NCBI GenBank assembly: GCA_039621445.1
Contig: CP154954.1
Span: forward strand, 37,061,703 to 37,125,702
Direction of reading: 5' to 3'
Length of the DNA: 64,000 bases
Origin: Euglena gracilis
Lineage: Eukaryota
This document shows, piece by piece, positions 42,344 through 64,000 of this stretch. Position numbers and translations under genes: made by a program. Numbering within the stretch: the first letter of the stretch is position 1; every line of letters begins with the position of its first letter. The notes under the pieces were generated by a model. It was not told the origin of the DNA. It saw nothing but the letters and a program-made list of their open reading frames with translations, and did no database searches.

Positions 42344-43399
42344 GCTGTGGCCATGCAGTCGGTGGCGGAGCAGCGGCAGCGGCTCGGGGATGGTGATGCA
42401 GCGGGCCCACTCACAGGCAGGCCCGTTTTCTTCTGCAAACACAGCCAGGGTTTTATGGAAAGCGCCAGATCTTTTTGAGATTTGGAGTATCCCCAAAATC
42501 GCAGTTTCAAATTTGGGCTTGGTTTGGGCTTCGTCCCACGACGGGTATTTTAGTGCTTTCCTTTTTGGAGGGACGGAAAAGGGCTGCTGGCAGGCTGGCC
42601 CCCAGAGGAGGTTAAATTTTCTGAAGGTCTTTCTGGTCCTGGTTGCAAGGCTCCACCCACTGCAACCCCCCCCCCCGAGGGTCGGTCCGGAGCCCGGGGT
42701 GTGGTCCGGACCCCCCTGCGGGCCAGGAGGGGTGGGGGGACACCCCCCCACCTAAACCATGTACGCCCTCCTTATATCAAACCCTGGGCTGAGGCCAGGG
42801 TGACTGTGGGGGGTCGGGGCCCAGGGGGGCCGGGTACGCTGCGGGGGCTGAGGCGGGGCTGCGGGGTAGCTGCCCCGGTGCCGCGCCGGGAACCCTCGCT
42901 CGGCCAGGGCGAGCCGAGGCCAAGCGAGGTCATCCGACACGGCCCGGGGTTGCCACGGACGCTGTGGGGGTTGGGGCCATACCATTGCTTAGCGACCCCC
43001 GGGGGGGAGGGGGGTCACTTTCCACTCCGAAAAAACCGGTCAGTCACTTTTTTTCGGCCAAGCCAGTCAGTCACTTTACCCCCCCCCAGGGGGGGGGGGT
43101 CAGCCACTCAGGAAAACCAGTCACTTTTTGGCCTTTCAAGGCCATTTTTGGCCAAAATTTTCTCCGGCGCCTTTGACGCCGGTTGGCCACTCAGCCACTT
43201 TTGGGTGATTTCTGGACTACCCCACCCCCCGGGGGGGGGGGGTCAAGGCCAAAAAAATCAGTCAGTCACCCTGAAAAAACCAGTCAGTCACCCCCCTGGG
43301 GGATGGGGTGGGACAGGTGTTAAACAATGGTCTGGTAGGGGCCCAGGTGGGGTGGGGTGGGTGGTCCATGTGGTTGTGGTGAGGGCTGTGGGCTGTGGC

Positions 43400-45001
43400 C
43401 AGGCACCTATAGTCAAGCCCAAAATTTCCTCATTTTAGGCCATTTTAGGCCATTTTAGACCATTTAAGGCCATTTTAGGCCATTTTAGGCCATTTTAAGG
43501 TATAGGTGGGGGTTCTGAAATCATATGTTTTCGTTATTTTTGTCCCGAAAACTGTATCATAACGTGTGCAAACCTTTTCTTATTAAGTTATAACAAAAGT
43601 ACATCCAAAAAGCATGCAAAATTCATGAACACTGGATCAAAACCATGGGAAGCTCAACAAATCTTAATTCATTCCCATAGAGGAATTCTGAACAGCAAGA
43701 ATTTGCGGCAGTGAAAAATTTTCAGAAAAAATTTTTAACAAATATTAAAAGTTTTATTTGCACTACCAGAAGGGCTCAGCTTTTTGTATTTTGGGGAAAC
43801 TTAATACTGAAAAGAAAACCAAGTTATAAATAGGAGAGAATAATACACTAACCACACCCATGCACCGTAATATATATTGTTTGATATAGCCAATTCATAA
43901 AAAAAATGCTTCTATGAATAATAAAAATATATTATTATCTTTCATAAAAAAAATCATAGTATCAAATCATAATATCATTAGAGTTAGCACCATTATAAAA
44001 AATTTGTTATACATCATTCATTTCTTTATGATGATACATATTTAAAGAATAATTATTAAGATCCATAATATAAACAAAAAATAAACTCCCAAAAAAACAA
44101 TAAAAGGTGAAATATGTGAACCTAATCCTGTACCTATATACCAATAAAATATTTCACATTCTATCATATTTTATTTTTATCATGTTCAATTTTATCATAT
44201 TCATATTTTATCATACTCAATTTAAAAATGATATGATTTAAAGTGGTCATAATAGTTATTATTAACAATTACATAATTTATCAATACTATTTTTACTTAA
44301 TATATATTTATTAATTTCTATTTCTAAATGTCATTAGTAAATATATATTAATAAAATTGATAATAATAAAATACAATAAAATATAATAATAAAACCCACA
44401 TTCAATATCCATATTAAACATAAAAAATTTGTATGATAATAAAATGTCCATTCATAAAAAAAATATTTTATATAAATTTCCTTAGAGAATTTATTATTAA
44501 ATTTAGAAATTTATAACAATCCTTGTATTATATATTTCAATTGATATTTTCCAACATCTTTTGCGTTTCTTTTTCTGTCTTTTTCCCCGTGCTTCAAAAC
44601 TTGCACTGTTTCATTGTTTGTGAAACGGACCTTGTTCCGCACCGAAAAAAAAATGCGAGTAAGAAAAATAATTTTGTCCAAACCTTCAAAGTTCAGCTAC
44701 CAAAAGGTTGGGGACTGTGGATTTTGGACTGATGCTACTTTTAATAGGGATAAAAACATGGGCCTTGTGGGGCTGTGCTCCTCCACCAAATCCACTGTTC
44801 GCCGTCCACATTAACAAAAGACACCGAAAGTCATTGCCTCAATGGATTCAGTTGTTCACAAAAAAATTTTGTGCAACAGAATTTTTTCCCTGAATGGATT
44901 CAGTTGTTCACAAAAAAATTTTGTGCAACAAAATTTTTCCCATTTTAGGCCATTTTAGGCCATTTTAGGCCATTTTAGGCCATTTTAGCTATAGGTGCCT
45001 G
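43400..45001. mobile_element. Family H element, second copy (by segmental duplication)
   Basis: Same TIRs, same TSD gctgtggc, same flanks and cargo as 40739-42343. Confidence 0.9.
43793..44167 (-). pseudogene. nad4: NUMT: nad4-like fragment (copy 2)
   Basis: Near-identical to copy 1 at an offset of 2661 bp; shares the internal TAA. Confidence 0.55.
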
Positions 45002-47700
45002 GCTGTGGCCATGCAGTCGGTGGCGGAGCAGCGGCAGCGGCTCGGGGATGGTGATGCAGCGGGCCCACTCACAGGCAGGCCCGTTTTCTTCTGCAAACAC
45101 AGCCAGGGTTTTATGGAAAGCGCCAGATCTTTTTGAGATTTGGAGGATCCCCAAAATCGCAGTTTCAAATTTGGGCTTGGTTTGGGCTTCGTCCCACGAC
45201 GGGTATTTTAGTGCTTTCCTTTTTGGAGGGATGGAAAAGGGCTGCTGGCAGGCTGGCCCCCAGAGGAGGTTAAATTTTCTGAAGGTGTTTCTGGTCCTGG
45301 TTGCAATTGAAAAACATATTTATGGTCCTTTATATATTCATCCCTCAAAAAGGAAAGCACTAAAATACCCATCGTGGGACGAAGCCCAAACCAAGCCCAC
45401 AGGGGAAAAACTTTTTGGGTTGCAAACAGAGCGTTCTTTAAACGACCACCCCAGGGGATTCAGCTCAGAAGCCGGAAAATTTGGGCTTGCTGACCCCTTC
45501 CCCCCCCCCAGGGGTCCCGGGCCGGAAAAGGGCTGCTGGCAGGCTGGCCCCCAGAGGAGGTCACATTTTCTGAAGGTCTTTCTGGTCCTGGTTGCAAGGC
45601 TCCACCCACGGCAACCCCCCCCCCCCCGAGGGTCGGTCCGGAGCCCCCTGGCAGGTGGGGGGGTGTGGTCCGGACCCCCCTGCGGGCCAGGAGGGGGGGG
45701 TGGGGGGACACCCCCCACCTAAACCATGTACGCCCTCCTTATATCAAACCCTGGGCTGAGGCCAGGGTGACTGTGGGGGGTCGGGGCCCAGGGGGGCCGG
45801 GTACGCTGCGGGGGCTGAGGCGGGCTGGCGGGGTTGTAGCTGCCCCGGTGCCGCGCCGGGAACCCTCGCTCGGCCAGGGCGAGCCGAGGCCAAGCGAGGT
45901 CATCCGACACGGCCCGGGGTTGCCACGGACGCTGTGGGGGTAGGGGCCATACCATTGCTTAGCGACCCCCGGGGGGGAGGGGGGTCACTTTCCACTCCGA
46001 AAAAACCGGTCAGTCACTTTTTTTCGGCCAAGCCAGTCAGTCACTTTACCCCCCCCCAGGGGGGGGGGTCAGCCACTCAGGAAAACCAGTCACTTTTTGG
46101 CCTTTCAAAGCCATTTTTGGCCAAAATTTTCTCCGGCGCCTTTGACGCCGGTTGGCCACTCAGCCACTTTTGGGTGATTTCTGGACTACCCCACCCCCCC
46201 GGGGGGGAGGGGGCGGTCAAGGCCAAAAAAATCAGTCAGTCACCCTGAAAAAACCAGTCAGTCACCCCCCCGGGGGGTGGGGTGGGACAGGTGTTAAGCA
46301 ATGGTCTGGTAGGGGCCCAGGGTGGCCGGGGGCTGTGGCCAGGGTGGTTGTGGGGGTCGGGGCCCAGGGGGGCCGGGTACGCTGCGGGGGCTGAGGCGGG
46401 GCTGCGGGGTAGCTGCCCCGGTGCCGCGCCGGGAACCCTCGCTCGGCCAGGGCGAGCCGAGGCCAAGCGAGGTCATCCGGACACGGCCCCGGGGTTGCCG
46501 GGGACGCTGTGGGGGTTGGGGCCCAGGGTGGCCGGGGCAGGTGGGGGTGGGGTGGGTGGTGTGGGTGGTTGTGGTGTGGGCTGTGGGCTGTGGCCATGCA
46601 GTCGGTGGCGGAGCAGCGGCAGCGTCGGGGATGGCGGTGCAGCGGGCTCACTCACAGGCAGGCCCGTTTTCTTCTGCAAACACAGCCAGGGTTTTATGGA
46701 AAGCGCCAGATCTTTTTGAGATTTGGAGTATCCCCAAAATCGCAGTTTCAAATTTGGGCTTGGTTTGGGCTTCGTCCCACAATGGGTATTTTAGCGCTTT
46801 CCTTTTTTGAGGGATGAATATATAAAAGACAATAAATATGTTTTTCAATGCAAATGTCAGGGGGAAAACTTTTTGGGTTGCAAGCAGGGCGTTCTTTAAA
46901 CGACCACCCCAGGGGATTCAGCTCAGAAGCCGGAAAATTTGGGCTGGCTGACCCCTTCCCCCCCCCCCAGGGGTCCCGGGCTGGAAAAGGGCTGCTGGCA
47001 GGCTGGCCCCCAGAGGAGGTCACATTTTCTGAAGGTCTTTCTGGTCCTGGTTGCAAGGCTCCACCCACGGCAACCCCCCTGGGGGGGGGGGTTGGACGGA
47101 GGTGCAGAACACCTTGCGTCAGAAGGGTGGGGGATGGTCTGCACCCCTCCCCCCCCCCTGCACACAAAACCAACCCAACCAGCACCCTGCCAGAGACCCA
47201 CCAAAAACAACAAAACAAAAATTGCACAGAGCATTGGCCCATTCTCTACCAATGTGTGTGTGCCAGGGCGTCGCTTAGCAACCCTGTGGGGGGGGGTCGA
47301 GTTCATTTGGGCTGGTTGGAAAAAGGCTGCTGACTGACGGACCCCCCCCCAAGAAGGGCAGGGATGAATGGGAAGCCTGGAGGGGGGTGGGATAGTGCTT
47401 AAAAAATTGTCTGCTTCCTTAATGCCGACAGGATGGGATTCAGCCTGAAATCCCATCAGGCTAGGGTTTGCCAACCCTGGGGGGGAAGGGGTGCCTCGGA
47501 ATGCCCTGGAGTGCCTGGGCAGACAGCCCCCCCCCCCCCCGGGGTCGGTGCCTGCCTGGCCGTGGACCAAAAAGCGCCCAACAGTGGGTTTTTCTGGGCA
47601 TCCGGCGCCTGAGGCACCGGAAGGGCCTTGGCCAAGTGCCCAGCCAGTTTTGGCCATGTCTACCCCCCCCCCGGGGTTGGATCTGCCTTGGGGTGCCTGC

Positions 47701-49184: not shown

Positions 49185-52100
49185 GGGGGCTGGTTGGCTG
49201 TGATGTGATGCACCATCATTCAGGGAGGACAACAATCGGAGTACAGGATCATTGCGCATTTTTGGGCCTCCCCCCCCCACGGGAAGCACGGTGTTTCAGG
49301 TGTCCCTGCGGCATTGCCGAAAAAATTCATCGCGTTTGAAGTTGGGTGAACGGTTCGCTCCTTTGCTGGGGAGATTCTGGAGTATTCCTGCTTGGGTTTT
49401 GAGTTAGGATTTAGGGGAGGTGGGTTGGCACCTGCTGCCGGGGGGAGGTGGGTTGGGGGAGCTGGCTTGGTGCAATATTTACGGAGCCGAAAATGAGGGA
49501 CACTCCGGGGGGGTGCCCACCCTTGCCCCCCAATCCAACCAAAAAAGAAGGCTTCTCGGATCGGAGGTGCATTGCATCACAGTCAGCCCGTGGCATAGCC
49601 AGGCCAGAACAGGAAACCCGGGGATTGCAACCCTCCCACCCACACCCATGCGCATGGTCTGCGGCAATTCATAAAATTCAGACTATGGCACCAAAGGGGC
49701 CGGGGCAAATTTGCAAAGCGAACTGTTCAAGTACCACCTGCCACCCAACCCCAATTGACAAATCTTTCCTTTCGGCGCTTCGCACCAAAACTTTGGGCAA
49801 ATGAGATGGGATGGGGGCAAATTGGTGGGGCAGGGAAATTATTGTGCAAAAATACCCCCCCCCCCAAAATAGCACGTCGGCCAAATCTTGGTGGATTTTG
49901 GACTTATTCGGCCCAGAACTTTGCGTCGGGCCAAAAATCTGGCCAAAGAGCCGAAAAGGTGTCCCCTGACCTGATTGGGGGGGGGGCATAATGTCGTTGG
50001 ACATGGGGGGGGGCACAACGTGGGGATGAGGGGACCCTCCCACCCAAAGAAAAAGACCAGGCCATTCCGGTTCTGGTCTGGGTACGGAGGGGGGGGCTGG
50101 CTGGGTAATCACCGTGAGAGACGAGTTTGCTTCAATGGCCAAAGATGAAACAAATAAATACCAAGGCCCCCCCATATAAGACCCCTTCGGGGTGTTGGCT
50201 TCCGGGGCCTCATATGGGGGGGGCGTGGTAATTGGCCAAACCCCAGCCTTCCCAAATGCCGAATCTCCCCTGCCATGGAAATTTCAAACACAACTTCATT
50301 GGGGACTGGCAATTGCTTTTCTTCCTGCAATGTGTGCGGGTTTTCATGGGCCTTGAAAGCTATAATAACATTTTTGTGTGGCTTGTGCTTACGGTGGGTG
50401 CTAGAAGGTGCCTGCCCCAGCAGGCACACCGGCACACCCCCCGGGGGGGTCCGGGGGGACCCAGAAAATTTTCATTGAAAATAGCCTCTTCCGGGCCCCG
50501 GCGCCTTCGGCGCCAGGGTCGGAGGGGAATGCCTGCTATGGTCAGGTGCCCCCCCAAAAACCTCACCTCCCCCCCGGGGGGGGGTCGGATCGGGTGGTAT
50601 AGGGGCCTGCCCCAAGCAGCCCCCCCCCCCCGTGGGGCAGGCACCCGACTGAGCACAAGCCTGATTCCAAACTCTGTTTCTTCACTCATTCAAAGAAGAA
50701 AACAAAGAAGGGGAAAAATCAACAAGGGAATCCAGTCAAAACTCAACCCTCCAGGGATTACCCAGCCAGGAGGGGGAATCATGGCACAAAGTGGAGCCCC
50801 CATGCCCCCCCCCATGCCCCATGCCCCAATACCCCCCCGTACCCCCCCCCATACCCCGTACCCCCCCATACCCTGTACCCCCCCACACCCCCTACCCCCC
50901 CCATACCCCAATTTTTTTTGCCTGAAACCATGCTTTTTGGCCTCCCGGACCCGTAAAACCTGTTTTCGCACCGAAATTGAGTGCCTTTCGGTGTTTGAGT
51001 CAAAAAATGGGCAAAAAAGTCGGAAAAATTCCGAAAAATTTTTGTTTGAAACCATGCTTTTCAGCCTCCCAGACCCGGAAAACCTGTTTTCGAGCCAAAA
51101 ATGACATATGAAACTGTTCGAGTGCCCAGGGCCCCGGACCCCCCCCCCCAGCAACAAAATAAGCCTCTACCGACTTTTTCTGTGGGCAAATCACGCGTCG
51201 TATGAAACTGTTCGAGTGTCCGGGGGCCATAAACTTCATGAAAAACATCCCCAAACCCTCCCCCCCCCACGCCCCCCCTGCACCCCCCATATCCCAGGTA
51301 TGGGGCCCCACTTTGTGCCATATGTGGGGGGGGGGGTGTTGTTCCCCCCATTCTGCTCCTCCACCACGCCCATGGGCACACTGGGTGCCAACCCCACAGT
51401 CTGATCGATAGACAGTCCAATCGGATTGTGCCAAGGATTGCAAGCAGAGTCATTCTCAGGAAACAAAAATGATAATTTGATCAATGTGCAAACATGTGCA
51501 TGCACATAGTGGTGCATATATGGTGGAAATATAATGTATATTTTATATGTATTTGTATCTATCTATCTCTATCTCGATCTCCATCAGCACGCGTACACTG
51601 CGCACATTTACATCTTTCGTGTGCAAACGTTAGTGTGTTTGAGTGCATGTCTGCAAGGTGGACATAAATTTATAATGCAAGGTATTACAATCCTTGGGTG
51701 GGTGGACCTGCGCGTGGGCAACAATGCTGGATCAACCACAGGGCTGCACAAGGAAAGCCATGTGGGCACCCGTTTGTTTCTCAAGGACTGGACCCCCAGT
51801 GTCCAGGGGAGCCCAGCCGCAGACAGCTGGGAAACAGGCAAAAAAAAACTGAATCCAGCCAGGTTGGCATTCGGAAGCCAAAATTTGGAGGCAAGAAACC
51901 CCCACAATCTCCCCAAAAATGCCATTTTTGGTCATCTTTGAGCAAACACTTCCTAGCGCAATGCATCGGGAAAAAAGGTTTCGTCCAGCCAGCTTCTTTG
52001 GACTGGCCAACACTTTTATCCAGCGGAACCCTCTGTGGAGGGTCCGCAGCCCGGCAGGGAAATGCTGGGAGGCTGGACCCCCCCCCCCAGGGGGAACAGG

Positions 52101-52580
52101 GTCACCTCCAACTCAAGAAAACCCCGACCCCCCCCCCGGTCGGCCCCTGGTGGGGGAGACAGCCCACCCACCCAGGAGGAGGGAGGCAGGGTATTCAGTA
52201 GGGGGGGGGGCAGTCCCAGACCACCTCCCCCTCAGTGTCAACCCCCCAGTGTGAGTCAACCGCCCGGAACATTTTTTGAGGGGCTCCTGAAATGAACCAA
52301 TCCCCTCCTCCCCTATCAGGCCGAGGGGGTGGGGCACCCCTGGAACCAAACTTTTTCTTCCCGGCGTTTTGCAACAAAAAATGCTTTCTTTTCAGAAAAT
52401 TTTGTGGATTTGTGGGGGAGAAAACTGCCTGCAAGCGAATGAAACGACCTCGAGAACTGGCGCCTGTGGAAACCTGGGAAAGCCTGGGGGATCAGCCTCC
52501 CCCCCAACCCCCACCCTCATTGGGGTTCCGGGATTCCCATTCCGCCCTGGCCATCGACCTCGTGCGTGGTGCTGCACCGC

Positions 52581-55500
52581 TCACCGGTGCAGCTTGCGCT
52601 TCAGCTTCCGCCACGCCCTCTTCAGGGCGTTGGGCCGTGCGCAGGGCACAGCGCCATGCACCGTTGCATCTCCCTGGGTCAGGGCGTAGCTTGGGGGGGT
52701 CCAGCTCAGAAGCCGGAAAATTGGCTTGGCTGGAATAAAGCTGCTGGCTGACCCCTGCCCCCTCCCGATCCTGTCGAAGCAGGCACCAAAAAAAAATCGA
52801 AATGGCAAAAAAAATCCAAAAAAAACTGCCAATCATGCAAAGAAAAGGGCCCAAATTTGCCCTGACCAGCCCTTTTCCAATTTCGTCATTTTTGTCCATT
52901 TTTGGCCCATTTTTCACCCCCCCCCCCAAAGTGAGGCTGGAAATAAATAAAACTCGTTGAGGGCGGGAGGGGGCCCCATGCTGGAAAAAAGGCTGCTGGC
53001 TGGCTGGAGCCGGGTTCGATCTCAAGGCAGGTGGGGGTGGGGGGTCCCGGAACCCCCCAGGGTTGGTCCGGACCCCCTTGGCAGGGTGGTCCAGGAGGGG
53101 GGTGGGGGGGGACACCCCCCACCTGAACCCTGGGCGCCCTCCTTATATCGAACCCTGGGCTGGAACCCCCCATGGGATCAAATTTTCTTAAGCTGCGCCC
53201 CAACCTGAAAATTGCCAATCCCCCACCAAAGCCAAAGCTGGGCGGGCTCAAAAAACGTTCACTGGCGAGGAGGAAAAAAATCAAAACCGTGAGCCGCCCC
53301 GAGCCAAAGAGACACCCCCCCATGCTTAATTATCTCCAAAAAAAACATTCTCTTGTTTTTTGAGCTGAATTTTCACTTTGCGTGTAAAAATTTCATTGGT
53401 TTTCGAGTATTCTTCATCATTCACGCGAAGAAACTTCCTGGACAGGGAAGCAGGGGGCTCTGGCAACTCTTTTGGAAAGCCCTCAGTGAAAAAATGGATT
53501 TTCAACCCCAGCCCCAGATGGGATGAGTTATGCATTGAATGTCTTTTTTTTGCTCCTTCCCCATCAGGGAATTTTGTGAGCCGGAGGGTACCCTACCCCC
53601 CGGGGGGGGGGGTCCAGCCAGCCAGCAGCTCAAATCCAGCCAGCAGCCCAAATTCGGGCTGGGAGCCCCCCTCCTGGGGGTCGAGTAAAATAAAACTGGG
53701 TCCAGCCCAACTGGAGGCCGGGCCAGCCAACCGCAGGCGGGCCAGCCAACTGGGCTGCCCAGCTCACTTATCCTTGCTTTTTTTCTCCTCATCACAGCCC
53801 TCCATCACAGCCCCCCAGCCTTGATCTAGCTCCACCGATCAAAACGTCTAAAATGACAAAAATGTGTTAGAAAATTTTGTTTTTCCTCGACCCAGCCCAG
53901 CCCAGTCCCCTCCAGTCCCGGACCCCCCCCCCCCCCCGCCGGGGGGGGGGGGGTCCAGCCAGCAGCTCAAATCCAGCCAACAGCCTTTTTTGCCAGCCGG
54001 AGGCTGGACCATACAATTGCTTACCGACCCCCAGGGGGGGGGAGGGGGGTCACTCCACTTTTTTAAAAACCAGTCAGTCACTCATTTTCAAAAAACCAGC
54101 CAGTCACTACCCCCCCGGGGGGGGGGGGGGGGGTCGGCCACTCAGAAAAACGGCCACTTTCCAGTCACTTTAGGCCATTTTAGGTCAAAAAAAATTTTCC
54201 GGCGCCTTCGGCGCTGGGGTCACTCAAGCCACTTTTGCCCACTCCTGGCCGACCCCCCCCCCGGGGGGGAGGGGGTCCGGGCCCAAAACCAGTCAGTCAC
54301 TCTGAAAAAACCAGTCACCCACCCCCCCGGGGGGGGGGGGGGGGGGGTGGGACAGTGCTTAAGCAATTGTCTGGGCTGGACCCCCCCGGGGGGGGCCCTT
54401 AAGAAATTCCCTGTTCCCCATTCATTTAGAAAGGAGCAGGGGTTTTTCTTAAGACCGGGGGGAGGTCCCCCGCCCACCAACCCCTGGAGGGGCCTCCCTG
54501 GGGGGGGGGGGGTCGGGGGACCCACAAAAAAAAATGGCCGAAAATCGCGAAAAGTGCTAAAAAATAGCACTTTTTCAAAAAATTTCTGCGCCAAAAGCGC
54601 TGAAAAGCACATCCCAGCCCCCTCCGGGGGGACCCCCCCCCCGGGTCCCGGGGCCCCACCCACCCACCCTACCCCCCCCCTGGAGTCCACGATGAAAAAA
54701 ACCCCTGGAAAGAAGGACAGAAGACAGAAATTGTATTTTGGTGTGCCATGTTTTATGTGCCCTGGCTGGGGTTGCGCCACCGCTGCTGCTTCAGCGGCCG
54801 GCGCGGCCGGCAGCTCGGCTGGCAGCGCAGCTGGCGCGACAGCCGGCGCGGCTGGCGGCGCAGGCGGCTCCGCAGGCCGGGCAGCGACAGGCCGTTGCCA
54901 AAGATGGCGGGGGAGGGGTGCCTCGGATTTGCACCAGAAGAGGGGGGCTTGGCACCCTGTCGCTTCTTCAAAGAGACCGTGTTGAGGGGGGACTGCACAA
55001 ACTTCTTTACACTGATCCCAGGGGTCACGTCCACCCAAAAAACCAGTCAATCTCCCCACCCACCCCAGGAGGGTCCCAGGGGACCCACCGAAAATGGCCG
55101 AAAAATCGCGAAAAATGCTAAAAAAAAGCACCTTTTTCAAAAATTTTCGGCACCTTCAGCGACGAAAAGTACATCCCACTCCCCTAGGGACCCCCCCCCA
55201 TGGGGGGGGTTGGCTGGACCCACCCACCCTGCCCCCCCCCACCCCCAGGAGGTCCAAAGCTTGAAAAAAAACCTGGTCGGGATGGGATACCCCACTGATC
55301 AGTGAGTGATTGTCTGCGTGGGACTTGCAATGCAGAAAGGCAGGAGGAGGGGCAGTCCGTCAGGAAGGGCCTGCCCGGCAGGCCACAGCCGGCGCCGGAT
55401 CTCCCGCACCACCGCCTTCGCCTTCGCCACGGGCCCGGGCGGCGGCGGCGGCTGCGCGTCCCTCCACCGCTGGAGGGGCGTGGTGGGGTTGATGAAGGGG

Positions 55501-57269
55501 GCGGGCACTTGGCCGCAGGCCGGTCCCCCAGGAACCCGCTTGGGGTGGGGGTGGGAAACAAACGGCCCGCGAGGTTTGGAGAACTTTGGAGAACTTTCTT
55601 CAAATTGTGAGCCGAAAGGCATCCGTTGGACCTGAAAGAAACCCAATCAGGAAACAGGCGGAGTGCAACAAAGCGATTCAAAAAAAAACATGTGTTGCCT
55701 GTGAATTCCGTTTACCTGCATTTCACACCCCTGACCCCAATTGCCAAGTCCAGCACTTTTGTCCTTCAATGATGAGGGCTTTAAACACATTTATCCGGAT
55801 TTCCAGGCTCTTCCAGGAATGTGGCCAAGTCGCCAACCGGGAGGGGCCGAAAAAAAAGGGGGGGACAGGCCTGGCCCCAGCAGCAGGGCGTGGACGGCGA
55901 GGTCGCCCACGGCGCCCACCATGATGGCCCACGTGTGGGCCATGCGGAGGGCGGCGTAGGCGGCGTTGTGCCGCCACGCCCCGGCTCAAAGGGGACAGGG
56001 GGAGGGAGGGGACCAGGCTGTTTTTTTACCAACCTGGGGGGGGGGGTCCAGAGTGCCTTGGAGGCCAGACCAAAATTGTTGAAAATCCCTTGATTTTTCT
56101 TTGAAAATGAATTCCTTGAAAATTGTGAACACTTTAGCTGCGGAAAGCACCCCAAAAATGCGCAATATGCTCAAAAGTGAGGAAAAGGGGCATTTTTGTT
56201 CATTTTCCGGCGCGCCAAAAGAAATATTTTTGTCATAAAGAAGGGGGGGTCCGGACCCCCCCAACCTCCAGGAAGGGGCCCCCTCACCCACCTTCAAACC
56301 AAAATGCTTCCAATCCATCCCTGGGGAGGGACCAGGGAGACCCCAAGCCAAGCCAACGGGGGGGGGGGGGTGAGCCAGGGTGTGGCCCGCCGTAGCCGTT
56401 GCCCTCGACTTGTTCGCGCAGGCGGCGGTCGATGGCATGGACGATGGCGGCGACGGCTGGCGGCGGAGGGCCCTCTGCCAGGGGGGGGGGGAGGGGAGGT
56501 TGGATTTGGATGAGAGACAAATCCGTTGGGGGTTTGCGAATGAACTTGAAGGCAACCCTCCGCCCCTTGAAATGCAACCGCAAAGGGCCCCCCGCTTGCG
56601 GTGCACGGGTACAACCCGGCGACCCACCGCAGCCGCGGCCGCAGGCAGTCCACGTACAGCGAGCTGTACGTGGCGACCACCGACAGCCGCAGGCTTGTGT
56701 GGGAATCTCGGGGGGGGGGGGGGGGGCTCCCCTTCCAAAACTGGGGGGGGGGGGAGGGTGAGGGTGAGGGGGGACCCCCCTACCTCCAGTATTCAGTCGC
56801 CGAAAATTTTGGCCCTGTTTGGGTCAAAAACATCAATTCTTCTGAAATTCCTCAAAAATGGTGGACAAAATGTCAGATACCTAAATTGAAGCCTTGAAAT
56901 GCCATTTTGATTTCCCCTCAACTCCCCTCCTGGCCCAAGTTACAGCCATTTTTCGACCAATTTTGGCCATTTTGCCAAAATTTCATATCGAGCTTCAAGA
57001 GGGTCCAAAAATGCACACCGGAAGATTTTTATTTGCCCCTGCAGAGGAGGGGGAGGGGGGTGGGTGGGGGACCCCCTTCCGAAACCGGGGGGACGGGGGT
57101 GGGGGGACCCCCCTGCCACCTTACCCCCCTAGGGGGGGACCCCCTGCCACCTGCGTCATGTCTGCGGAGCTTCCCATACAACCCTGGCCAGCCATGCCAG
57201 CGCGTTGGCCAGGCGGCTGTCGGTGGTCGGCAGGATCAACAGCAGGGCCCATTGGTAGGTCAATGCACC

Positions 57270-57340
<71 letters not shown>

Positions 57341-57658
57341 GTAATAATAATAATAATGATGATGATGATGATGATGATGATGGTAATAATAATAATAATG
57401 ATGATGATGATGATGATGATGATGGTAATAATAATAATAATGATGATGATGATGATGATGATGATGGTAATAATAATAATAATGATGATGATGATGATGA
57501 TGATGGTAATAATAATAATAATGATGATGATGATGATGATGATGATGATAATAAGAAGAAGAAGAAGAAGAAGAATAAGAATAAGAATAAGAATAAGAAT
57601 AAGAATAAGAATAAGAATAATAATGATGATGATGATGATAATGATAATAATAGCAATA

Positions 57659-57712
<54 letters not shown>

Positions 57713-57721
57713 GCAACAATA

Positions 57722-57786
<65 letters not shown>

Positions 57787-60700
57787 GACAATAATGATGA
57801 TGACGATGATGATGATGATGAAAAAAGGAAAATATTCAACATCTCAACAAAACATGTTGACTCGATTTGGCTGGGGGTCAACAGCACCAATCTAACCCCC
57901 CAGCACAGCAAAAAAAAACCAGGCTTACAATGTTTCAGCCAAATTCCTCTGAATGGGAGTGAAACGCAACGCTGGCAGTAATTCAAACCTGACCCAGGAA
58001 GCCGGCTCCACAAACTCCGGGTTGTGCTCCCAAATTTCACCTTTCCGTTTCTCTGACCCCAAATGCCGACGCCACTCGGCCCTGTGCGTCCAGCCCGCGG
58101 CGACGATGGGGGCGAGCAGCAGGGGCACCAGCCACCAGCTGCGGACCTGTGAGAGGGGAAGTGGTATGAGCTTTGTGATAATTCCCCCTCGCTGCCTGGG
58201 AAAATGGCAACCAAAAAAAATGCGGTAAAAAATGTACGATGTTCTGCGAGTCAACCCACAAAATGCAAAACATTTGGGGGGCAACGTCAGAGGATCAGGC
58301 TTCTTTTCATCAACCTGGGGGGGGGGGTATTGTGCCTCTCGGAGCCTACCAGCCAGGTCATTTTTTAGAGGCCATTTTTGGGCCATTCGGCGTCAGGGGG
58401 TGTGCTGTGGCGCCAACCCACCCCAAACCCCGACTCCCCGGGTCGAAAATGCCCTACCCCTGCCTGCCAATAGCACCCCCCCCGGGGGGTGCGCATTGCA
58501 AAGAATCAAACAGAAACCCATGTGCATCCCTCGCCATCGTTATCGCCTTTAGAAAGCTGCATTTCACCAAATCTGTCTTCTTTTGAATTTTATCAGTTTT
58601 TTAATTCATTCCGGAGAAATTTGTGGAGACGTGAGCGAAGATCAGGCGGATGTGGGGCGCAAGCAATGACATACCGTTAGCGGTGCGCGGGGCGGTCGTT
58701 CCCTCGCTGCCTCACGCGCCAGCAGCGCGCTCTCGAACTGTGAGAGGCAGGGGCATTTGAGGTTGTAAATCTGAAACACAGCCTGGGAGTGTCCGGACCC
58801 CCATCCAGGCTTCTTTTAAGACCCCCGGGGGGGGTCCCCCCACCCACCCAGGGTGGCGCGGGACCCCGGGGGGGGACCCCAAAATCGGGCCCGTTAAAGG
58901 CAATTTTCAAAAATTTTCGGTGCTTCGCGCCGAAAAGGTATACCCGGCGCGGGACCCACCCCCCGGGGGGTCCGGCCCCGGACCCCCCCCCACCCACCAG
59001 ACATTCATTTAGTGTGGCTCACAAAAGATGTGTGAACCACAAAATTTTTTTTGGTGTCAACAGGTGAACCACAAAAAAACTCTCGGTGTCCACGGTGAAC
59101 CACAAAATGACAACGTTGGTATACCACACTGAATAAATGTCTGGCACTCACCCTCCCTCCCCCCCCCGGGGGGGTCTGCTGACTTAAAAAGAAGCCTGCC
59201 CCCATCCCTCGGGCAGGGTATTAAATGAGTGTTGGGGGGGGTTGGATTGTGCAAAAAAATTTCTGGCAACGGAAAAAACCAAAAAATCGAATTTTCGAAA
59301 AAAAAATTTTGAAGAATCAGTCAAACAATGCACCACCCATTTTTTATTCTTTCTGGGTTTCCGGGGGTCCCAGACCCCTCGGTCTGAAGGGGGGGTCTGG
59401 ACCCACCAGGGTGGGTCCAGGTGGCACCCTCCCCCCGGGGGGTCTAACCCCTCTTTCCCCGCACCCCCCCCCCTCCCGCAAGACCACTGTTCACTCAACA
59501 CAGGGGAAAAACTTCTCCATCGGGCAAATGACAAAAGGTCGACAGAATTTTTGGTCTCGGGGGAAAATCGAGGGCAAAACGAGCAATTTTTCATTGTCAA
59601 AAAGACCTTGACCCTTACCTTTGCCCAAACCCTTTTTGAAACTAGAAAATCGGGAGGGAGAAAAAAACAAAATGCAACAACAACAATAACAACAACAACA
59701 ACAACAGACATAAAAACACAAATTTTATCAAAATAGAAAAACACAAATAATGCAAAAAAAACATTTGCGTTCCCCTTGCCTTCCCCTCCCCTTGCTAAAA
59801 CTAACGCTTGACACTTTGTTACTGCCAGTTGAGTGAAGATCCAGCACACCCCCGATCCATTTGTGAACCCGGACAAACCCCAAACGCACCGACCTCCACA
59901 CAGTCCCGTGGCACGGGGTCTTCTGAGTTAGTAATGGGCCTGGACACCATGAAAGTGCTAAAAATAGCACTTTCGGCGCCTTCAGCGCCGAAAAGCATAT
60001 CCCACCCCCCTCCGGTGGGACCCCCAGGGGGGGGGGCTCGGCCGGACCCACCCACCCTACCCCAGGGTTCGATATAAGGAGAGGAGGGGGGGGGTGGTCC
60101 GGACCCCCCTGCAGGCCAGGAGGGGGGGGGGACACCCCCCCCACCTGAACCATGTACGCCTCCTCATATCAAACCCTTCCCCCCCCCCCCCCCCCCACCG
60201 GGCAGGGTTCGATATAAGGAGGGGGGGGGGGTCCAGACCCCCCCCCCTGCGGGGCAGGAGGGGGGGGGGGGGCCACCTAAACAGTGGCGCGGTCAGGGTG
60301 ACCGATTTTCGGCCCAGCGCAAAGCGCCGGGCCGAAAAATTTTGACCCCCCAAGACGACCAAAAGTGCCATTTTGGGCACTTTTTGGGCAAAAATTGGCC
60401 AAAAATGCAAAAAAATTTCGGCGCAAAGCGCCGGAGGAAAAAATTGCCCCTTTTTGGGGGGGGGTCCCGGGTACCCCCCCCGAGGGTCGGTCCGGACCCC
60501 CCTTGCAGGTGGGGGGGGGGGTGGTCCGGACCCCCCCTGCAGGCCAGGGAGGGGGGGGGGGGGGGGGGACACCCCCCCACCTAAACCATGTACGCCCTCC
60601 TTATATCGAACCCTGCCCCCGGGGTCCACGACCAAAAAAACCCCTGTCCCCCACAGGTGGCTTTTGAAGAGAACTGTCCAGGTTGAATCCAGAATTCCAG

Positions 60701-63277
60701 GGGACGGGGGTGCACAATGAAAATGAAAAGAGATTCGGAAGCAAAGCGCAAGGCAGAACACACCGTGGCGAAGCGGCAGGCCGGGCACAGCGGCACGCTG
60801 CGCCCGGCGACCTCCGCCTGCACCATCCCCAGCCGACGGTGGTGGCCCCACGCCCTTCGTTACTTTGTCATTGTGTTAACATGCATGGGAATGAGGTCCT
60901 TGACAGGCAGGGGTGGGGGGGGCTTCCCCCCCCCCACGGAAATCCCCCGTCCCCAAAAGTCAGTTTCCTTCCAACCGAAAATGGCATTTTTGACAGAAAT
61001 TTGTTATTAAATTATCTTTGCACTGTCTGGGTCACCACAACGCACATTTAACAGAAGAGCACACATTTAAAGAAGGGCGTGGGCGGCAGCGGGCACAGAG
61101 GTCCGGGTCCGCCACCGCGTGGCGGACCTGGATCTCCTTCGCCGTCCCCAGGGCAGAACGGGAAGGCCTGGTCCACCCGGGAGGCGGGTGTTTGACCCCC
61201 CACCCCACCACGGCAATTTCACAGATTTCTTATCAGATAACATTGATAGACCTTATCAGATAACGTAGATGACAATTTCTTTCCCCGCCCCTTTGGCGCC
61301 GGAAAAAAACTTTGGGGTCGAAAATTGGTGTTCCCGGAAATACGGTGGTGTGGTTGGCCTCCCGTTCTGCCCTGGTTGTCCTCTCCGCGGGGGTCTCGAT
61401 CAGCCACCAATATTCGGCGGCAGGCTGCTTTTTGTTTGTTTTGTTTTGTTGTTTCGATAAACACCACAAAAAAAAACCGCCTGCTCAAGCAGCTGCCGAA
61501 TCCCACGCAGTGGGTTGGCAGCGCGGCGCGCGCGGGCCAGCAAGTTTTGGGGCGGATGGAGCTGGTGTTGCCCCCAGGCCGTGCTGGACTGATGGGGGGG
61601 GGGGCTTCACCACAATTGCAATGCAGGCGTCTTTCCAACGCCTCTGCGTGGTGTGGGACCCTCAGAACAAAAACCTCTGGGGGGAAGCCATTGACCTTCT
61701 TTAAAAACCATGGGAGTTTTGTGCTGAAAAAAATTTCTGGTTTGGCGCAAAAAAAACCCATTTTTCTGATTTTGGGACAGATGCAGATGTGGTGGTGGCT
61801 GCTGGTGGCACTTTTCGGGGGGGTTTGTGATAAACAGAAACTGCAGAATGAAAGCACCACGCGTGGAATCCGAACAAACGCCGGGTTTTGGGATGATGAT
61901 CCCCCACCCTGGCCATGAAGCAGACACAAGCAAGACACGGCCGCAATGTACACACCCTACCCTGGATATCCAAATGGCAGCCATATTCTAAATGCCCCCC
62001 CCTGGGGGGCCATTTAGAGTGACCAGGGGGTCAAAATAGTTTTTTTGTGTTAATGATGGAGTTGGGTTAGGTGCGCGACTTAGGCTTAGGGTTAGGCCTA
62101 ACTTATAGATGGGTGTTCGGTGTACAAGTTAGGCCTAACCCTAAGCCTAAGTCGCGCACCTAAACCTACTCCATCATTAACGAAAAAGATGCCAGGGGGG
62201 GGGGGCATTTAGAGTGACCAGGGGGGGCCATTTAGAATATGGCTGCCATCCAAATAACCCCCCCAAATAACACCCCCCCCCCTTGTGTTACTTGGGCACC
62301 CTGGGTCCCCAGGGGGGGGGGAATTTGGGGGGGGGTGTTATTTTTTACATGGAAAACCAAAAGAAATTAGGGGGGTGATATTTGGGCGCTCGAAATCGGC
62401 CCCGGAGAGGGGGGGGGTGTTATTCGGGGGGGGGGAGAAGCCTGAAATTATGAAGTGGAGACAAACACAAAAAACTTACAGAAACCTCCTCTATCTTTTG
62501 TTGCGAAACTTCCAAAAGTCAAAAACCCTTCTGGAGTTTGACTGCGAAAACCACATGGGGGGGGTCGACCCCCCGCAGAGCAATGTAAAACTGCCAAATG
62601 AGGGGAGGGGGCTTCAAGAATCCAATGCCAGGGAAAAATATTCTCACCTCTGTCCAACCCCCCACCCCGGAGGAGAAGAGGACAGAGGGGTGTGCAACCA
62701 TCGGCCGACCCCTCCCCCAGGGGTCCACTCTTCCGAAAACCAGGCAGTCACCAAGAACCAGGCAGTTTGGAAATCCAGCCAGTCCCCCACCCCCCCGGGG
62801 TCAGCTGCTCTGGAATCTGGAACGGGAAAAAAATGGCAGAAATATTTTGCGGCCGGGTCACCTTTGCGATGACTGCTTCTGGAGGGAGGTGGACAGGGAC
62901 AAAACCCAGTCAGTGATCCCCCTGGATTGGTGAAGAAACTGCAAAGGCGGGGGTGAGGTGCGGGAGTCCCTTTTGTGAAATTTCGGCAATTTTTTGCCCA
63001 AAAAAGTTTTGGCTGATTTTTGGCCGCTTTTGGGTCCAAGGGTTTTCGGCCTTATGCTTTGCGCCAGGACGCTGTGTCTGTGACGGGAGGGGGGTCATAG
63101 CGGAGTCGCCTGAGCACAGGGGGGCAAATGATTGTGTGCACCCCTGGTATTTCTTTGATGGCCCACATTTTCCTGGCCACCGGGGCCTGCATGGCGATCC
63201 CGCTCGTGCTCCGCTGCCTTCTCGTCCGCTTCCTGCAGGAGCACGGCGGGGGCGACGTAGGCGGCGGGTGGCGGGAC
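52581..63277 (-). CDS. 5'-partial 14-exon gene; hypothetical membrane protein with CxxC-x19-CxxC motif (376 aa in window)
   Basis: Manual exon join (minus): 63277-63193, 61569-61487, 61415-61378, 61143-61085, 60843-60764, 58737-58675, 58146-58071 (alt. end 58041), 57268-57190, 56684-56598, 56458-56382, 55975-55877, 55510-55377, 54882-54768, 52636-52581 = 1131 nt, one open frame ending in TGA. Exons are GC3-rich islands. Translation: VPPPAAYVAPAVLLQEADEKAAEHERDRQHQLHPPQNLLARARRAANPLRGIRQLLEYWWLIETPAERTAKEIQVRHAVADPDLCARCHHRRLGMVQAEVAGRSVPLCPACRFATFESALLAREAARERPPRAPLTVRSWWLVPLLLAPIVAAGWTHRAEWRALTYQWALLLILPTTDSRLANALAWLSVVATYSSLYVDCLRPRLRWVAGLYPCTAAVAAIVHAIDRRLREQVEGNGYGGPRRHNAAYAALRMAHTWAIMVGAVGDLAVHALLLEVPAPFINPTTPLQRWRDAQPPPPPGPVAKAKAVVREIRRRLWPAARPAEPPAPPAAPAVAPAALPAELPAAPAAEAAAVAQPRPNALKRAWRKLKRKLHR*. 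Family not recognised. Confidence 0.82.
54010..54373. mobile_element. Independent copy of the cagtcagtcac MITE family
   Basis: catacaattgctta/taagcaattgtctg; perfect TSD ggctggac. Confidence 0.85.
54437..54707. mobile_element. hAT-like MITE related to family E
   Basis: caggggttttt...aaaaacccctg; TSD gaaaggag/gaaagaag (7/8). Confidence 0.8.
56685..57189 (-). other. Nonconventional (non-GT-AG) intron formed by a hAT-like MITE plus one TSD copy
   Basis: T|ggc-CAGGGTTGTATGGGAAGCTC...GAGATTCCCACACAAGCCTG-cggct|G. The element 56690-57186 is flanked by gacagccg/gccagcca (6/8). Removal restores the frame ...LAWLSVVATY... Confidence 0.8.
57270..57820. repeat. Compound microsatellite (GAT)n/(AAT)n/(AAG)n/(AAGAAT)n, intronic
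   Basis: Seen directly; abuts the AG acceptor at 57269-57270. Confidence 0.97.
58806..59198. mobile_element. Family E MITE
   Basis: Same TIR; perfect TSD cccccatc. Confidence 0.9.
58998..59143. mobile_element. Minimal family D MITE nested in a family E MITE
   Basis: cagacattcatttagtgtgg...ccacactgaataaatgtctg; TSD ccacccac/gcactcac (6/8). Confidence 0.75.
60203..60615. mobile_element. Family G MITE
   Basis: cagggttcgatataaggag/ctccttatatcgaaccctg; TSD ccaccggg/cccccggg; short adjacent copy at ~60063-60178. Confidence 0.8.
61144..61377 (-). other. Nonconventional intron
   Basis: C|aac-CAGGGCAGAACGGGAGGCC...GGCCTTCCCGTTCTGCCCTG-gggac|G; long terminal stem; in-frame join ERT|AKE; TSD relic aggacaac/gggacggc (5/8). 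Confidence 0.8.
61570..63192 (-). other. Nonconventional intron (1623 nt)
   Basis: C|atg-CAGGCC...GGCCTG-ggggc|A; in-frame join DRQHQL; contains the MITE at 61976-62247. Confidence 0.65.
61976..62247. mobile_element. GG-terminated hairpin MITE (Merlin-like)
   Basis: TIR ggcagccatattctaaatg/catttagaatatggctgcc; perfect TSD atccaaat; internal palindrome shares gggttaggtgcgc with family B. Confidence 0.8.
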
Positions 63278-63421
63278 CTGTGGAGATTTGGATTGAGGTG
63301 ATGGCAGAGCACGAAGGCTTTCCCACACGCACGCTGAGAAGCACACAGCTGAACTGGTCCCGGAGGCTGGTCGCACTTTTTGACACCCCCAATCTGCCCC
63401 GAAAAAACACGCGCCCCCCAA

Positions 63422-63683
63422 CAGGCTTCTTTTTATGACCCCCGGGGGGAAGGGGGGTCCCCCAGGGTGGCGTGACCCCCCGGGTGGCGGGGACCCCTCC
63501 CCCAAAATCAAAAATCAGACGCGTTAAAGGCAATTGTCAACGTTTTTCGGCGCTTTGCGCCAAAAACGTACACCCGGCGCAGCGGCGCGGACCCCCCACC
63601 CCCCAGGGGGTCCGGCCCAGACCCACCCACCCACCCCCCTCCCCCGGGGGAGGGGGGGGTCAGGTGAATTAAAAAGAAGCCTG
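63422..63683. mobile_element. Family E MITE (older copy)
   Basis: caggcttcttttta...ttaaaaagaagcctg; degenerate TSD; inserted in a diverged 197-bp monomer. Confidence 0.75.
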
Positions 63684-64000
63684 CCCCGAACCCCCACCCC
63701 GAATTATACTGAAAAACTGTCAAAAATCCCTATTGTAAGGTGTTTTACCGGTGACAATGGGGGTGGGGAACCCAGCCGACCTGGTCCCGGGGGCACGGTC
63801 GCACTTTTTGGCACCCCCCAATTCCCAAAAACTCACGCCCCCCCCCCCGCCCCGAATTATACTGAAAAATGGCCAAACTTACACAATTGCGGGGTGTTTT
63901 ACCAGCAGTGGTTCCGGTGACAGTGGGGTTTTTGGGGGCGGGGAACCCAGCCGACCTGCTCCCGGGGGCTGGTCGCACTTTTGGGCACCCCCCAATTTCC

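Follow-up and report, generated by a model that had tools for sequence, protein, structure and literature searches.

The 3' part of a likely Euglena gracilis gene with ten predicted nonconventional, stem-bounded introns among thirteen

Noncanonical splicing in Euglena follows a sequence code, 5'-N3CDG-/-CH'GN5-6|R (Nomura et al. 2025, PMC12501133). Because this code is present in 61.2% of annotated nonconventional introns (PMC12501133), off-code members are to be expected. For E. gracilis, the part of Gao et al. 2024 (PMC11170887) drawn on here gives a nonconventional consensus of CCAGG (+3..+7) and CCTG (-9..-6) and terminal pairing of -10 to -2 kcal/mol for 10-nt ends; it describes conventional introns as having a GTGTG donor, a C-rich pyrimidine tract, and a CAG acceptor. 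Intermediate or hybrid euglenid introns, in which conventional borders and terminal pairing occur together, are described in the excerpted text of PMC4770533, and a class of "both" introns makes up 0.8% in PMC12501133. Nonconventional introns account for 71.8% of introns in E. agilis and 16,151 of 28,337 in E. gracilis (57-72% overall), and genes that mix conventional and nonconventional introns are described as common.

Within the window (the whole 64,000-nucleotide stretch of E. gracilis DNA analyzed here), the minus strand of positions 52581-63277 likely carries 14 or more exons from the 3' part of an ordinary Euglena-type nuclear gene that codes for protein and in which 10 of 13 introns are nonconventional. 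As such introns predominate in Euglena and genes of mixed type are common, ten of thirteen is the expected picture. The architecture is ordinary and the intron class already known; the high interest that a first-pass annotation had attached to this architecture is not supported by the E. agilis and E. gracilis figures above. Its interpretation held up in part. The intron class is well supported, whereas the gene model, backed by periodicity and frame consistency, is matched by neither a transcript nor a homologue in the data below and is doubtful at its 5' end, at intron 1, and at exon 13.

Rebuilt from the coordinates of the first-pass annotation, the 14 exons join to 1131 nt, and frame 0 stays open for 376 codons to a TGA at 52581-52583, as had been claimed. 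The remaining forward frames are interrupted by 6 and 3 stops; in reverse the counts are 1, 4, and 3. From the 5' end, the exons are as follows.

Exon 1, 63193..63277, minus strand: 85 nt; no ATG; unlikely to be the true first coding exon; model frame ahead by 7.3 and 22.5 log units.
Exon 2, 61487..61569, minus strand: 83 nt; model frame ahead by just 1.6 log units.
Exon 3, 61378..61415, minus strand: 38 nt.
Exon 4, 61085..61143, minus strand: 59 nt; its 3' end encodes the opening CxxC of a motif with four cysteines.
Exon 5, 60764..60843, minus strand: 80 nt; second Cys pair (CPxC); in-frame ATGs begin here, at codon 95.
Exon 6, 58675..58737, minus strand: 63 nt.
Exon 7, 58071..58146, minus strand: 76 nt; first hydrophobic segment.
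Exon 8, 57190..57268, minus strand: 79 nt.
Exon 9, 56598..56684, minus strand: 87 nt; GC3 1.0.
Exon 10, 56382..56458, minus strand: 77 nt; frame tied with another (0.1 log units apart).
Exon 11, 55877..55975, minus strand: 99 nt; most hydrophobic segment; GC3 1.0.
Exon 12, 55377..55510, minus strand: 134 nt; model frame ahead by at least 17.7 log units.
Exon 13, 54768..54882, minus strand: 115 nt; contains 33- and 21-nt tandem repeats.
Exon 14, 52581..52636, minus strand: 56 nt; basic tail and TGA (52581-52583); GC3 0.95.

The exons have a coding-like composition (GC1 0.77, GC2 0.57, and GC3 0.88; intron GC 0.31-0.63) and have no second copy within the 64-kb window. Leave-one-out codon-position composition ranks the model frame first in 12/14 exons (binomial P 8e-5). 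When GC3-periodic islands were sought on the minus strand without reference to the model, 10 of the 14 exons were picked up, 9 in the model frame; with a stricter threshold, the island scan recovered a microsatellite alone. Exon ends placed by composition-based segmentation are mostly offset by 10-20 nt (70 nt at most), which is too blunt for a test of junctions. The earlier claim that the junction rule keeps one frame open through the joins stands in that a stop-free spliced sequence arose in only 80 of 20,000 shuffles (0.4%), but for the last six introns the open frame is a weak test, since moving any one of them by 1 nt brings no stop before codon 351-363.

Ten introns share the geometry that the first reading of the locus had described: 3 nt, a triplet, a stem, the pairing triplet, and 5 nt. 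The 5-nt 3' spacer in 10/10 is built into the coordinates that we took over. They are listed below, with energies in kcal/mol.

Intron 1, 61570..63192, minus strand: 1623 nt; ATG-CAGGCC...GGCCTG-GGGGC|a; 6-bp stem; energy -18.2, rank 4/25; the weakest of the ten.
Intron 2, 61416..61486, minus strand: 71 nt; GAG-CAGGC...GCCTG-CCGCC|g; 5 bp contiguous, 11/12 paired; energy -16.8; fits the strict code.
Intron 3, 61144..61377, minus strand: 234 nt; AAC-CAGGGCAGA...TCTGCCCTG-GGGAC|g; 17-bp stem; energy -36.6, rank 1/25; found by a blind code scan.
Intron 4, 60844..61084, minus strand: 241 nt; CAC...GTG, outside the CDG/CH'G code; 10-bp stem; energy -25.1, rank 1.
Intron 8, 56685..57189, minus strand: 505 nt; GGC-CAGG...CCTG-CGGCT|g; 4 bp contiguous, 10/12 paired; energy -23.1, rank 2; found by the code scan.
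Intron 9, 56459..56597, minus strand: 139 nt; AAG-CGG...CCG-CCGCC|a; 15-bp stem including 2 G-U pairs; energy -37.0, rank 1.
Intron 10, 55976..56381, minus strand: 406 nt; ACC-CTG...CGG-GGCGT|g; 8-bp stem; energy -17.3, rank 2; junction cannot slide.
Intron 11, 55511..55876, minus strand: 366 nt; GGC-CAGGCC...GGCCTG-CGGCC|a; 6 bp contiguous, 11/12 paired; energy -30.3, rank 1.
Intron 12, 54883..55376, minus strand: 494 nt; GGG-CAGGCC...GGCCTG-TCGCT|g; 6 bp contiguous, 10/12 paired; energy -16.5, rank 6.
Intron 13, 52637..54767, minus strand: 2131 nt; AGC-CAGGGCACA...TGTGCCCTG-CGCAC|g; perfect 9-bp stem, the sole geometry among 3721 reaching 9 bp; energy -20.1, rank 1.

The opening triplet is CAG in seven introns and CAC, CGG, and CTG in one each, as first counted. 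All ten have non-GT/GC-AG borders (in intron order, AT..GC, GA..CC, AA..AC, GC..CC, GG..CT, AA..CC, AC..GT, GG..CC, GG..CT, and AG..AC), and the first base of the downstream exon is a purine in every case. Y|R junctions had been reported at both ends of nine introns, and we find the same: intron 11 (55511-55876) is the exception, with g|G on its 5' side, and the 3' junction is Y|R in 10/10. Between 8 and 12 of the first 12 terminal positions are paired in each of the ten introns. The folding of intron ends that the first-pass annotation had proposed as a check came out in its favor: 20-nt ends pair with their own partners at a mean of -24.1 kcal/mol versus -12.5 kcal/mol for 90 non-partner combinations (Mann-Whitney p 3.9e-6), and the three GT-AG introns reach only -1.3 to -4.9 kcal/mol.

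Most of these features are common to the class described in PMC12501133: the 3-nt 5' spacer, CAG, CGG, or CTG at +4..+6, the complementary triplet at -8..-6, the 5-nt 3' spacer, the purine that opens the next exon, and extra base pairing inside the motifs. The CGG-CCG pair of intron 9 is a derivative motif proved spliceable in that study. Compared with the E. gracilis consensus in the portion of PMC11170887 cited above, CAGG at +4..+7 and CCTG at -9..-6 occur in 7/10 introns and C at +3 in 6/10. With that paper's 10-nt + U7 construct, energies ran from -7.1 to -13.6 in the ten introns and from 0 to -1.2 in the three of GT-AG type, the same contrast between nonconventional and conventional pairing that this portion reports for E. 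gracilis. Several stems here (15-17 bp) exceed what that consensus implies; otherwise nothing essential differs from what the cited portion describes.

The strict code fits 8/10 introns; the CAC-GTG intron 4 (60844-61084) and the CTG-CGG intron 10 (55976-56381) depart from it. CDG stands at +4..+6 after exactly 3 nt in 9/10 (seven CAG, one CGG, and one CTG), the exception being the CAC of intron 4, and a complementary CH'G stands at -8..-6 in 8/10, with GTG in intron 4 and CGG in intron 10. The latter falls outside the strict code because its middle pair is a T-G wobble, making the 3' motif CGG and not CH'G. In these two respects the locus is unlike the published code, and excision of the introns is here a prediction. 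If they are excised as drawn, introns 4 and 10 could be natural substrates outside the CDG/CH'G code, a proposal that we hold tentatively and at slightly less than an even chance. Such excision would suggest that a long terminal helix could offset a non-consensus triplet, and the two introns would then be test cases for the nonconventional splicing machinery, suited to the published knock-in assay.

As the first-pass annotation had stated, three consecutive GT-AG introns lie mid-gene; the donor of intron 7 is weak. These introns and the acceptor-like sequence immediately upstream of exon 1 are as follows.

3' splice site (putative), 63278..63300, minus strand: C-rich pyrimidine tract ending in CAG, immediately upstream of exon 1.
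Intron 5, 58738..60763, minus strand: 2026 nt; GT-AG; donor GTGTGT; C-rich tract and CAG acceptor; terminal pairing -4.9.
Intron 6, 58147..58674, minus strand: 528 nt; GT-AG; donor GTATGT; C-rich tract and CAG acceptor; terminal pairing -1.3.
Intron 7, 57269..58070, minus strand: 802 nt; GT-AG; weak donor GTCGGC.

Introns 5 and 6 resemble the conventional introns of E. gracilis, as far as the cited part of PMC11170887 describes them, in their GTGTGT and GTATGT donors and ...ctctcacag acceptors, and the site upstream of exon 1 is similar. Judged by its sequence, 63278..63300 is a predicted conventional 3' splice site that would serve either a cis intron or spliced-leader trans-splicing; it agrees with the C-rich tract and CAG given for E. 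gracilis introns and outrons in the same part of PMC11170887. Intron 7 departs from the conventional introns described there: its donor is poor, most of its length is a 552-nt trinucleotide microsatellite (57270-57821), and its acceptor, the only AG within +/-40 nt, is found where that repeat ends. A filter for strong conventional introns (at least 4/5 donor matches to GTGTG, pyrimidine fraction of at least 0.7, and CAG) was passed by 2/3 GT-AG introns, intron 7 failing on its donor. Intron 5 has no other strong conventional pair within +/-40 nt, and among the ten nonconventional introns only intron 1 has a strong in-frame GT-AG alternative within the same distance. The Euglena-type signals of the three GT-AG introns also count as evidence for the model.

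In the mechanism that we propose, bases from +4 on would pair with bases up to -6, bringing both junctions of a nonconventional intron together, and the nonconventional splicing machinery would cut 3 nt ahead of the 5' motif and, on the other side, 5 nt past the 3' motif, in front of a purine. The other three introns would be removed as conventional spliceosomal GT-AG introns through GTGTG-like donors and acceptors made of a C-rich tract and CAG. We infer that the RNA is made and is cut exactly at the predicted places; geometry, stems, frame periodicity, and fit to the published code are observed directly in the DNA.

The triplet rule is not specific. With shifts of up to 30 nt, at least 3 paired bases occur in 148-305 of 3721 geometries per intron (4-8%). 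A strict code scan over 52000-64000 (N3-CDG, at least 8/9 paired, and CHG-N5|R) returned 176 minus-strand and 183 plus-strand pairs, versus 95 +/- 12 in Markov simulations, and recovered just 6/10 model introns. By itself, then, the triplet rule does not exceed chance. Its permissiveness and the nearly equal frequency of code-like pairs on the wrong strand would suit a reading with no gene at all, in which GC-rich islands and abundant inverted repeats have been chained together, and RNA support, a homologue, and a start codon are all missing in the data examined. We nonetheless regard this as highly improbable, given what does exceed chance: the stem lengths, the pairing of own partners far more strongly than non-partners, a stop-free frame found in so few shuffles, and the agreement of frames in 12/14 exons. 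In addition, 2/3 GT-AG introns are the sole strong Euglena-type pairs nearby and lie exactly at model junctions, and the N3/N5|R asymmetry and the pyrimidine-tract acceptors agree on one strand. A likely gene with mostly nonconventional introns carries little significance beyond annotation, as such introns, their +4/-6 pairing, and the sequence code are already published. For gene finding, the lesson is that ORF tracks and GT-AG-based finders miss such genes in such genomes; a rule-based model combining N3-CDG...CH'G-N5|R with an extended stem and GC3 periodicity can recover them, so long as the triplet is not relied on by itself.

Codon 95 is the earliest in-frame ATG, and exons 1-4 contain no ATG in any frame. 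Because of this, and because exon 1 starts at a conventional acceptor, the gene model is probably 5'-incomplete, its 5' end lying beyond the window. No coding-like island was found upstream of exon 1 in 63278-64000. This segment is partly satellite-like, with 75-85% identity to a 199-bp array.

The gene may be real with several junctions elsewhere, an arrangement that we consider possible but doubtful: intron 1 would be conventional (adding 15 codons), exon 13 would be Arg-rich through shifted junctions, and further exons would lie upstream of the window end, a view that fits an exon 1 opening at a conventional acceptor with no ATG. Intron 1, whose terminal pairing is the weakest of the ten, does have a strong in-frame GT-AG alternative, with a donor 26 nt downstream and an acceptor 19 nt upstream of the drawn sites (GTGGG, matching GTGTG at 4/5; pyrimidine fraction 0.8; CAG), although the 9 codons gained on the donor side have low GC3. 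Like the hybrid introns in the excerpted text of PMC4770533, it is readable as stem-bounded or as a good GT-AG intron; unlike them, its two readings use separate junctions 19-26 nt apart. The reading frame of exon 13 is uncertain: in the model frame it is Ala/Pro-rich with a GC3 of 0.68, and in the frame one base further on it is Arg-rich with a GC3 of 1.0 and scores 12 log units better. The published code permits a 6-nt 3' spacer (PMC12501133), yet the shift together with a return to the strongly periodic frame of exon 14 takes three departures from the code: that 6-nt spacer, a pyrimidine as first base of the exon after intron 12, and a 2-nt 5' or 4-nt 3' spacer at intron 13. The last two were not or only poorly tolerated in knock-in experiments.

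Transcription was assessed with 12.9 million raw reads of RNA-seq run X9, ~5% of the run, against 52200-57275 (exons 8-14 and six nonconventional introns). Depth was ~0 to 0.15 in the exon bins 54750-54919, 55260-55429, and 55770-55939, and of 2517 placed reads, 2509 matched only in part, to repeats or poly-G; full-length reads on exons 8-14 were practically absent. The 15 joints listed (477 more exist) include none of the six nonconventional joints predicted in this region. Contigs from X1 and X2, of uncertain nature, are unspliced pieces and repeats; those of X1, which is only guessed to be RNA, cross the donor borders 55376/55377 and 56597/56598 unspliced. Thus, in the RNA data examined (one sample, 52200-57275), the gene is silent or nearly so, which is not proof of silence.

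This near-zero depth over exons 8-14 raises the question of an unexpressed relic, either a pseudogene or a duplicate without function, whose architecture is right and in which intron signals have been kept. We consider a relic unlikely, as the 376-codon frame is intact over 13 joins, GC3 is 0.88 with periodicity retained in 12/14 exons, and ten of ten stems are intact; moreover, the RNA sample was ~5% of one run and covered the lower half of the gene, exons 8-14. A relic would nevertheless be consistent with the absence of a start codon and of an upstream coding island in the partly satellite-like 63278-64000, with the failure of single-exon searches to find homologues, and with exon 13, whose composition suits a frame other than the one produced by the junction rule, as could happen in a decayed gene. 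Exon variants between the window and contigs of other runs amount to 5 sites at second or third codon positions, too few for a selection test.

If the preferred model of a functional, mostly nonconventional gene is right, it would encode an orphan protein of 376 residues or more. In this predicted product a motif of four cysteines (CxxC...CPxC) is accompanied by three or four hydrophobic segments, and the tail is basic; its amino-acid make-up (A 20%, L 12%, P 11%, and R 11%) is what any GC-rich frame yields. Homologues were sought exon by exon, on unjoined window sequence. Exon 12 gave 42 word-sharing candidates among 5.8 billion protein clusters (longer proteins), none significant. Among 1.84 billion representatives, exon 11 had one match, P0001 (E 6e-5); as this protein of 2507 residues is made up of fourteen 121-residue repeats, each matching with 34% identity, it was rejected as a summed repeat artefact. 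Ten exons searched against Pfam at E up to 10 gave nothing above noise, and a sub-threshold DUF7620 match (13.4 bits versus a cut-off of 27) was also rejected. So was a metagenome locus matching exon 12 and two flanking codons on each side, in which the match includes a stop codon and depends on a single short basic motif. The whole window has zero Rfam matches.

In a probable DNA run, the exons fall in the lowest-depth bins, at 22-90 versus 10^3-10^5 over intronic repeats. Intron 13 is packed with high-copy dispersed repeats, as judged from read depth, and intron 1 contains a nested foldback element with arms at 62043-62107/62123-62187 and 61974-62005/62218-62249.

The 14-exon minus-strand gene that the first-pass annotation had proposed at 52581-63277 was rebuilt by script from its coordinates, with 52400-64000 read on the minus strand. 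Its 13 introns are as follows.

Introns of the gene model (all minus strand; NC, nonconventional, stem-bounded)
61570-63192, intron 1, NC
61416-61486, intron 2, NC
61144-61377, intron 3, NC
60844-61084, intron 4, NC
58738-60763, intron 5, GT-AG
58147-58674, intron 6, GT-AG
57269-58070, intron 7, GT-AG
56685-57189, intron 8, NC
56459-56597, intron 9, NC
55976-56381, intron 10, NC
55511-55876, intron 11, NC
54883-55376, intron 12, NC
52637-54767, intron 13, NC

The exons are 38 to 134 nt long (1,131 nt in total) and carry one open frame across the joins (frame 0, 376 codons), ending with a TGA at 52581-52583. All ten stem-bounded introns share one geometry, with 3 nt, a triplet (CAG in seven; CAC, CGG, and CTG once each), its pairing triplet near the other end, and a final 5 nt; Y|R junctions occur on the 5′ side of nine and the 3′ side of all ten. 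GT...AG borders are present in the remaining three. The original observation is confirmed in every item. The gene model built on it is probably right in outline but probably 5′-incomplete, with intron 1 and exon 13 in doubt, and neither RNA nor homology supports it.

The geometric rule as first worded is not beyond chance. At least three paired bases were also found in 148 to 305 of 3,721 geometries per intron (shifts of ≤30 nt), and a scan of 52000-64000 with the full published code (≥8 of 9 bases paired) gave 176 minus-strand and 183 plus-strand pairs, versus 95 ± 12 in Markov simulations, recovering only 6/10 model introns. The open frame is a weak test for the last six introns because shifting any one of these junctions by 1 nt brings no stop until codon 351 to 363.

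Four results carry the case beyond chance: stem length, intron-specific pairing, coding composition and frame, and stop-free shuffles. The stems have, in intron order, 6, 5, 17, 10, 4, 15, 8, 6, 6, and 9 contiguous pairs, with 8 to 12 of the first 12 positions of the intron ends paired. Folding of the ends, a check that the first-pass annotation had named, revealed pairing that is specific to each intron: 20-nt ends averaged −24.1 kcal/mol with their own partner versus −12.5 for 90 nonpartner combinations (p 3.9e-6), and the three GT-AG introns gave −1.3 to −4.9. Exon composition is coding-like (GC1 0.77, GC2 0.57, GC3 0.88; intron GC, 0.31 to 0.63). When each exon was scored in turn by a position-specific composition model trained on the remaining 13, the junction-rule frame ranked best in 12/14 (binomial P 8e-5). 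Only 80 of 20,000 shuffles of the spliced sequence were free of stops, and its other five frames hold 1 to 6 stops each. On the minus strand, a model-free scan for GC3-periodic islands recovered 10 of the 14 exons; repeated elements aside, few comparable islands were found elsewhere in the window.

The intron class was correctly named, and both the class and its sequence code are already known. Knock-in genetics defined the code 5′-N3CDG-/-CH′GN5-6|R, with a strictly 3-nt 5′ spacer, a 5- to 6-nt 3′ spacer, a preferred purine as the first exon base, and required pairing past the triplets (Nomura et al. 2025, PMC12501133). An exact fit is seen in eight of the ten introns; the CGG-CCG of intron 9 is a derivative motif spliceable in that study, and the code does not cover CAC-GTG (60844-61084) or CTG-CGG (55976-56381). 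Such off-code introns are normal, since just 61.2% of the NC introns annotated in PMC12501133 are reported to follow the code. These two long-stem introns could be used as natural tests of the splicing code, the sole mildly novel point here. The E. gracilis consensus places CCAGG at +3 to +7 and CCTG at −9 to −6 (Gao et al. 2024, PMC11170887); CAGG and CCTG stand at those positions in seven of ten. In that study's construct of 10-nt ends plus U7, folding energies were −7.1 to −13.6 kcal/mol for the ten introns versus 0 to −1.2 for the GT-AG introns, the contrast reported in PMC11170887. The conventional signals described there, GTGTG donors and acceptors with a C-rich tract and CAG, match introns 5 and 6, the sole strong conventional pairs in their neighborhoods; the donor of intron 7 is weak. 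According to the literature, the spliceosome would remove conventional introns first and NC introns would follow later, rapidly (PMC6221363); a terminal helix would bring the NC junctions side by side, and cleavage would then fall at set distances from the CAG/CTG pair. Formation of circular RNAs has also been proposed (PMC12501133, introduction).

Neither the intron class nor the architecture is unusual or new. NC introns account for 71.8% of the introns of E. agilis, the share in an improved gene set of E. gracilis is reported to be similar, and genes with introns of both types are numerous (PMC12501133); 16,151 of 28,337 E. gracilis introns are NC in PMC11170887. The 10/13 (77%) found here is therefore expected.

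The gene model has four weak points. Exons 1 to 4 lack ATG in all frames, the first in-frame ATG is codon 95, and a C-rich tract with a CAG acceptor directly precedes exon 1. The 720 nt from exon 1 to the window end contain no coding-like island, and part is 75 to 85% identical to the 199-bp satellite of 7074-15524. Further exons probably lie past the window end. Intron 1 has the weakest stem of the ten and a strong in-frame GT-AG alternative (donor 26 nt downstream, acceptor 19 nt upstream). The reading frame of exon 13 is doubtful: the model frame gives an Ala/Pro-rich stretch (GC3 0.68), whereas the frame one base on is Arg-rich (GC3 1.0) and 12 log units better. Entering that frame and then regaining the strongly periodic frame of exon 14 would take three departures from the code that the knock-in data disfavor (PMC12501133): at intron 12, a 6-nt spacer and a pyrimidine as the first exon base, and at intron 13, a spacer that breaks the rule. 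In exon 10, the model frame ties with another by composition.

Reads were compared over 52200-57275 (exons 8 to 14 and six NC introns). In 12.9 million raw RNA-seq reads of run X9 (about 5% of the run), exon bins had depths of about 0 to 0.15, and 2,509 of 2,517 matching reads were partial matches to repeats and poly-G; therefore, the gene is silent or nearly so in that sample, a result that speaks neither for nor against the junctions. None of the six predicted joints was among the 15 listed for this interval (477 further joints occurred). Contigs of run X1, only guessed to be RNA, cross 55376/55377 and 56597/56598 unspliced.

Homology queries were single unjoined exons. Exon 12 had zero matches among 5.8 billion protein clusters, and Pfam searches with 10 exons had none; exon 11 matched one of 1.84 billion representatives, a spurious repeat protein, and a single metagenome locus was a chance match with an internal stop codon. 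No paralogue was found within the window. The predicted product carries two cysteine pairs, CxxC at 85-88 and CPxC at 108-111, with intron 4 between; its tail is basic, and it contains three to four hydrophobic segments. Any GC-rich frame would give such a composition, and for that reason the predicted protein remains an orphan.

Repeats lie in the introns and elsewhere in the window. Very high-copy dispersed repeats with long poly-G/poly-C runs lie at 53560-54580 (intron 13), 55090-55259, and 56790-57275; they drew hundreds of partial RNA-seq reads, and summed contig depth in a probable DNA run was 10^4 to 10^5 on them versus 22 to 90 on exons. A 552-nt trinucleotide microsatellite (57270-57821; 182 copies, minus-strand type ATC/ATT) occupies the greater part of intron 7 and abuts its AG acceptor. 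Intron 1 holds a nested foldback element (61974-62249) that looks like a MITE-like insertion, with inner arms at 62043-62107 and 62123-62187 (65 nt, 92% complementary) and outer arms at 61974-62005 and 62218-62249 (32 nt, 97%). A 32-bp tandem unit occurs at 16178-16304, 17364-17509, and, inside intron 5, 59032-59108. The 198- to 199-bp satellite forms two large arrays, 1415-4534 (15.8 copies) and 7074-15524 (42.8 copies), with 85 to 86% matches, and related copies (75 to 85% identical) lie at ∼63758-63997, directly upstream of exon 1. At 32648-33945, a GC-rich minisatellite (29-bp unit, about 45 copies) accounts for the long ORFs present in every frame. In repeats at about 40205-40284, 42329-42954, 44987-45924, and 46418-46650, the same short GC3-rich translations recur three to four times; the repeats are separated by AT-rich blocks (GC 0.22 to 0.26 at 41001-42000 and 44001-45000) and resemble a segmental tandem duplication spanning a few kilobases.
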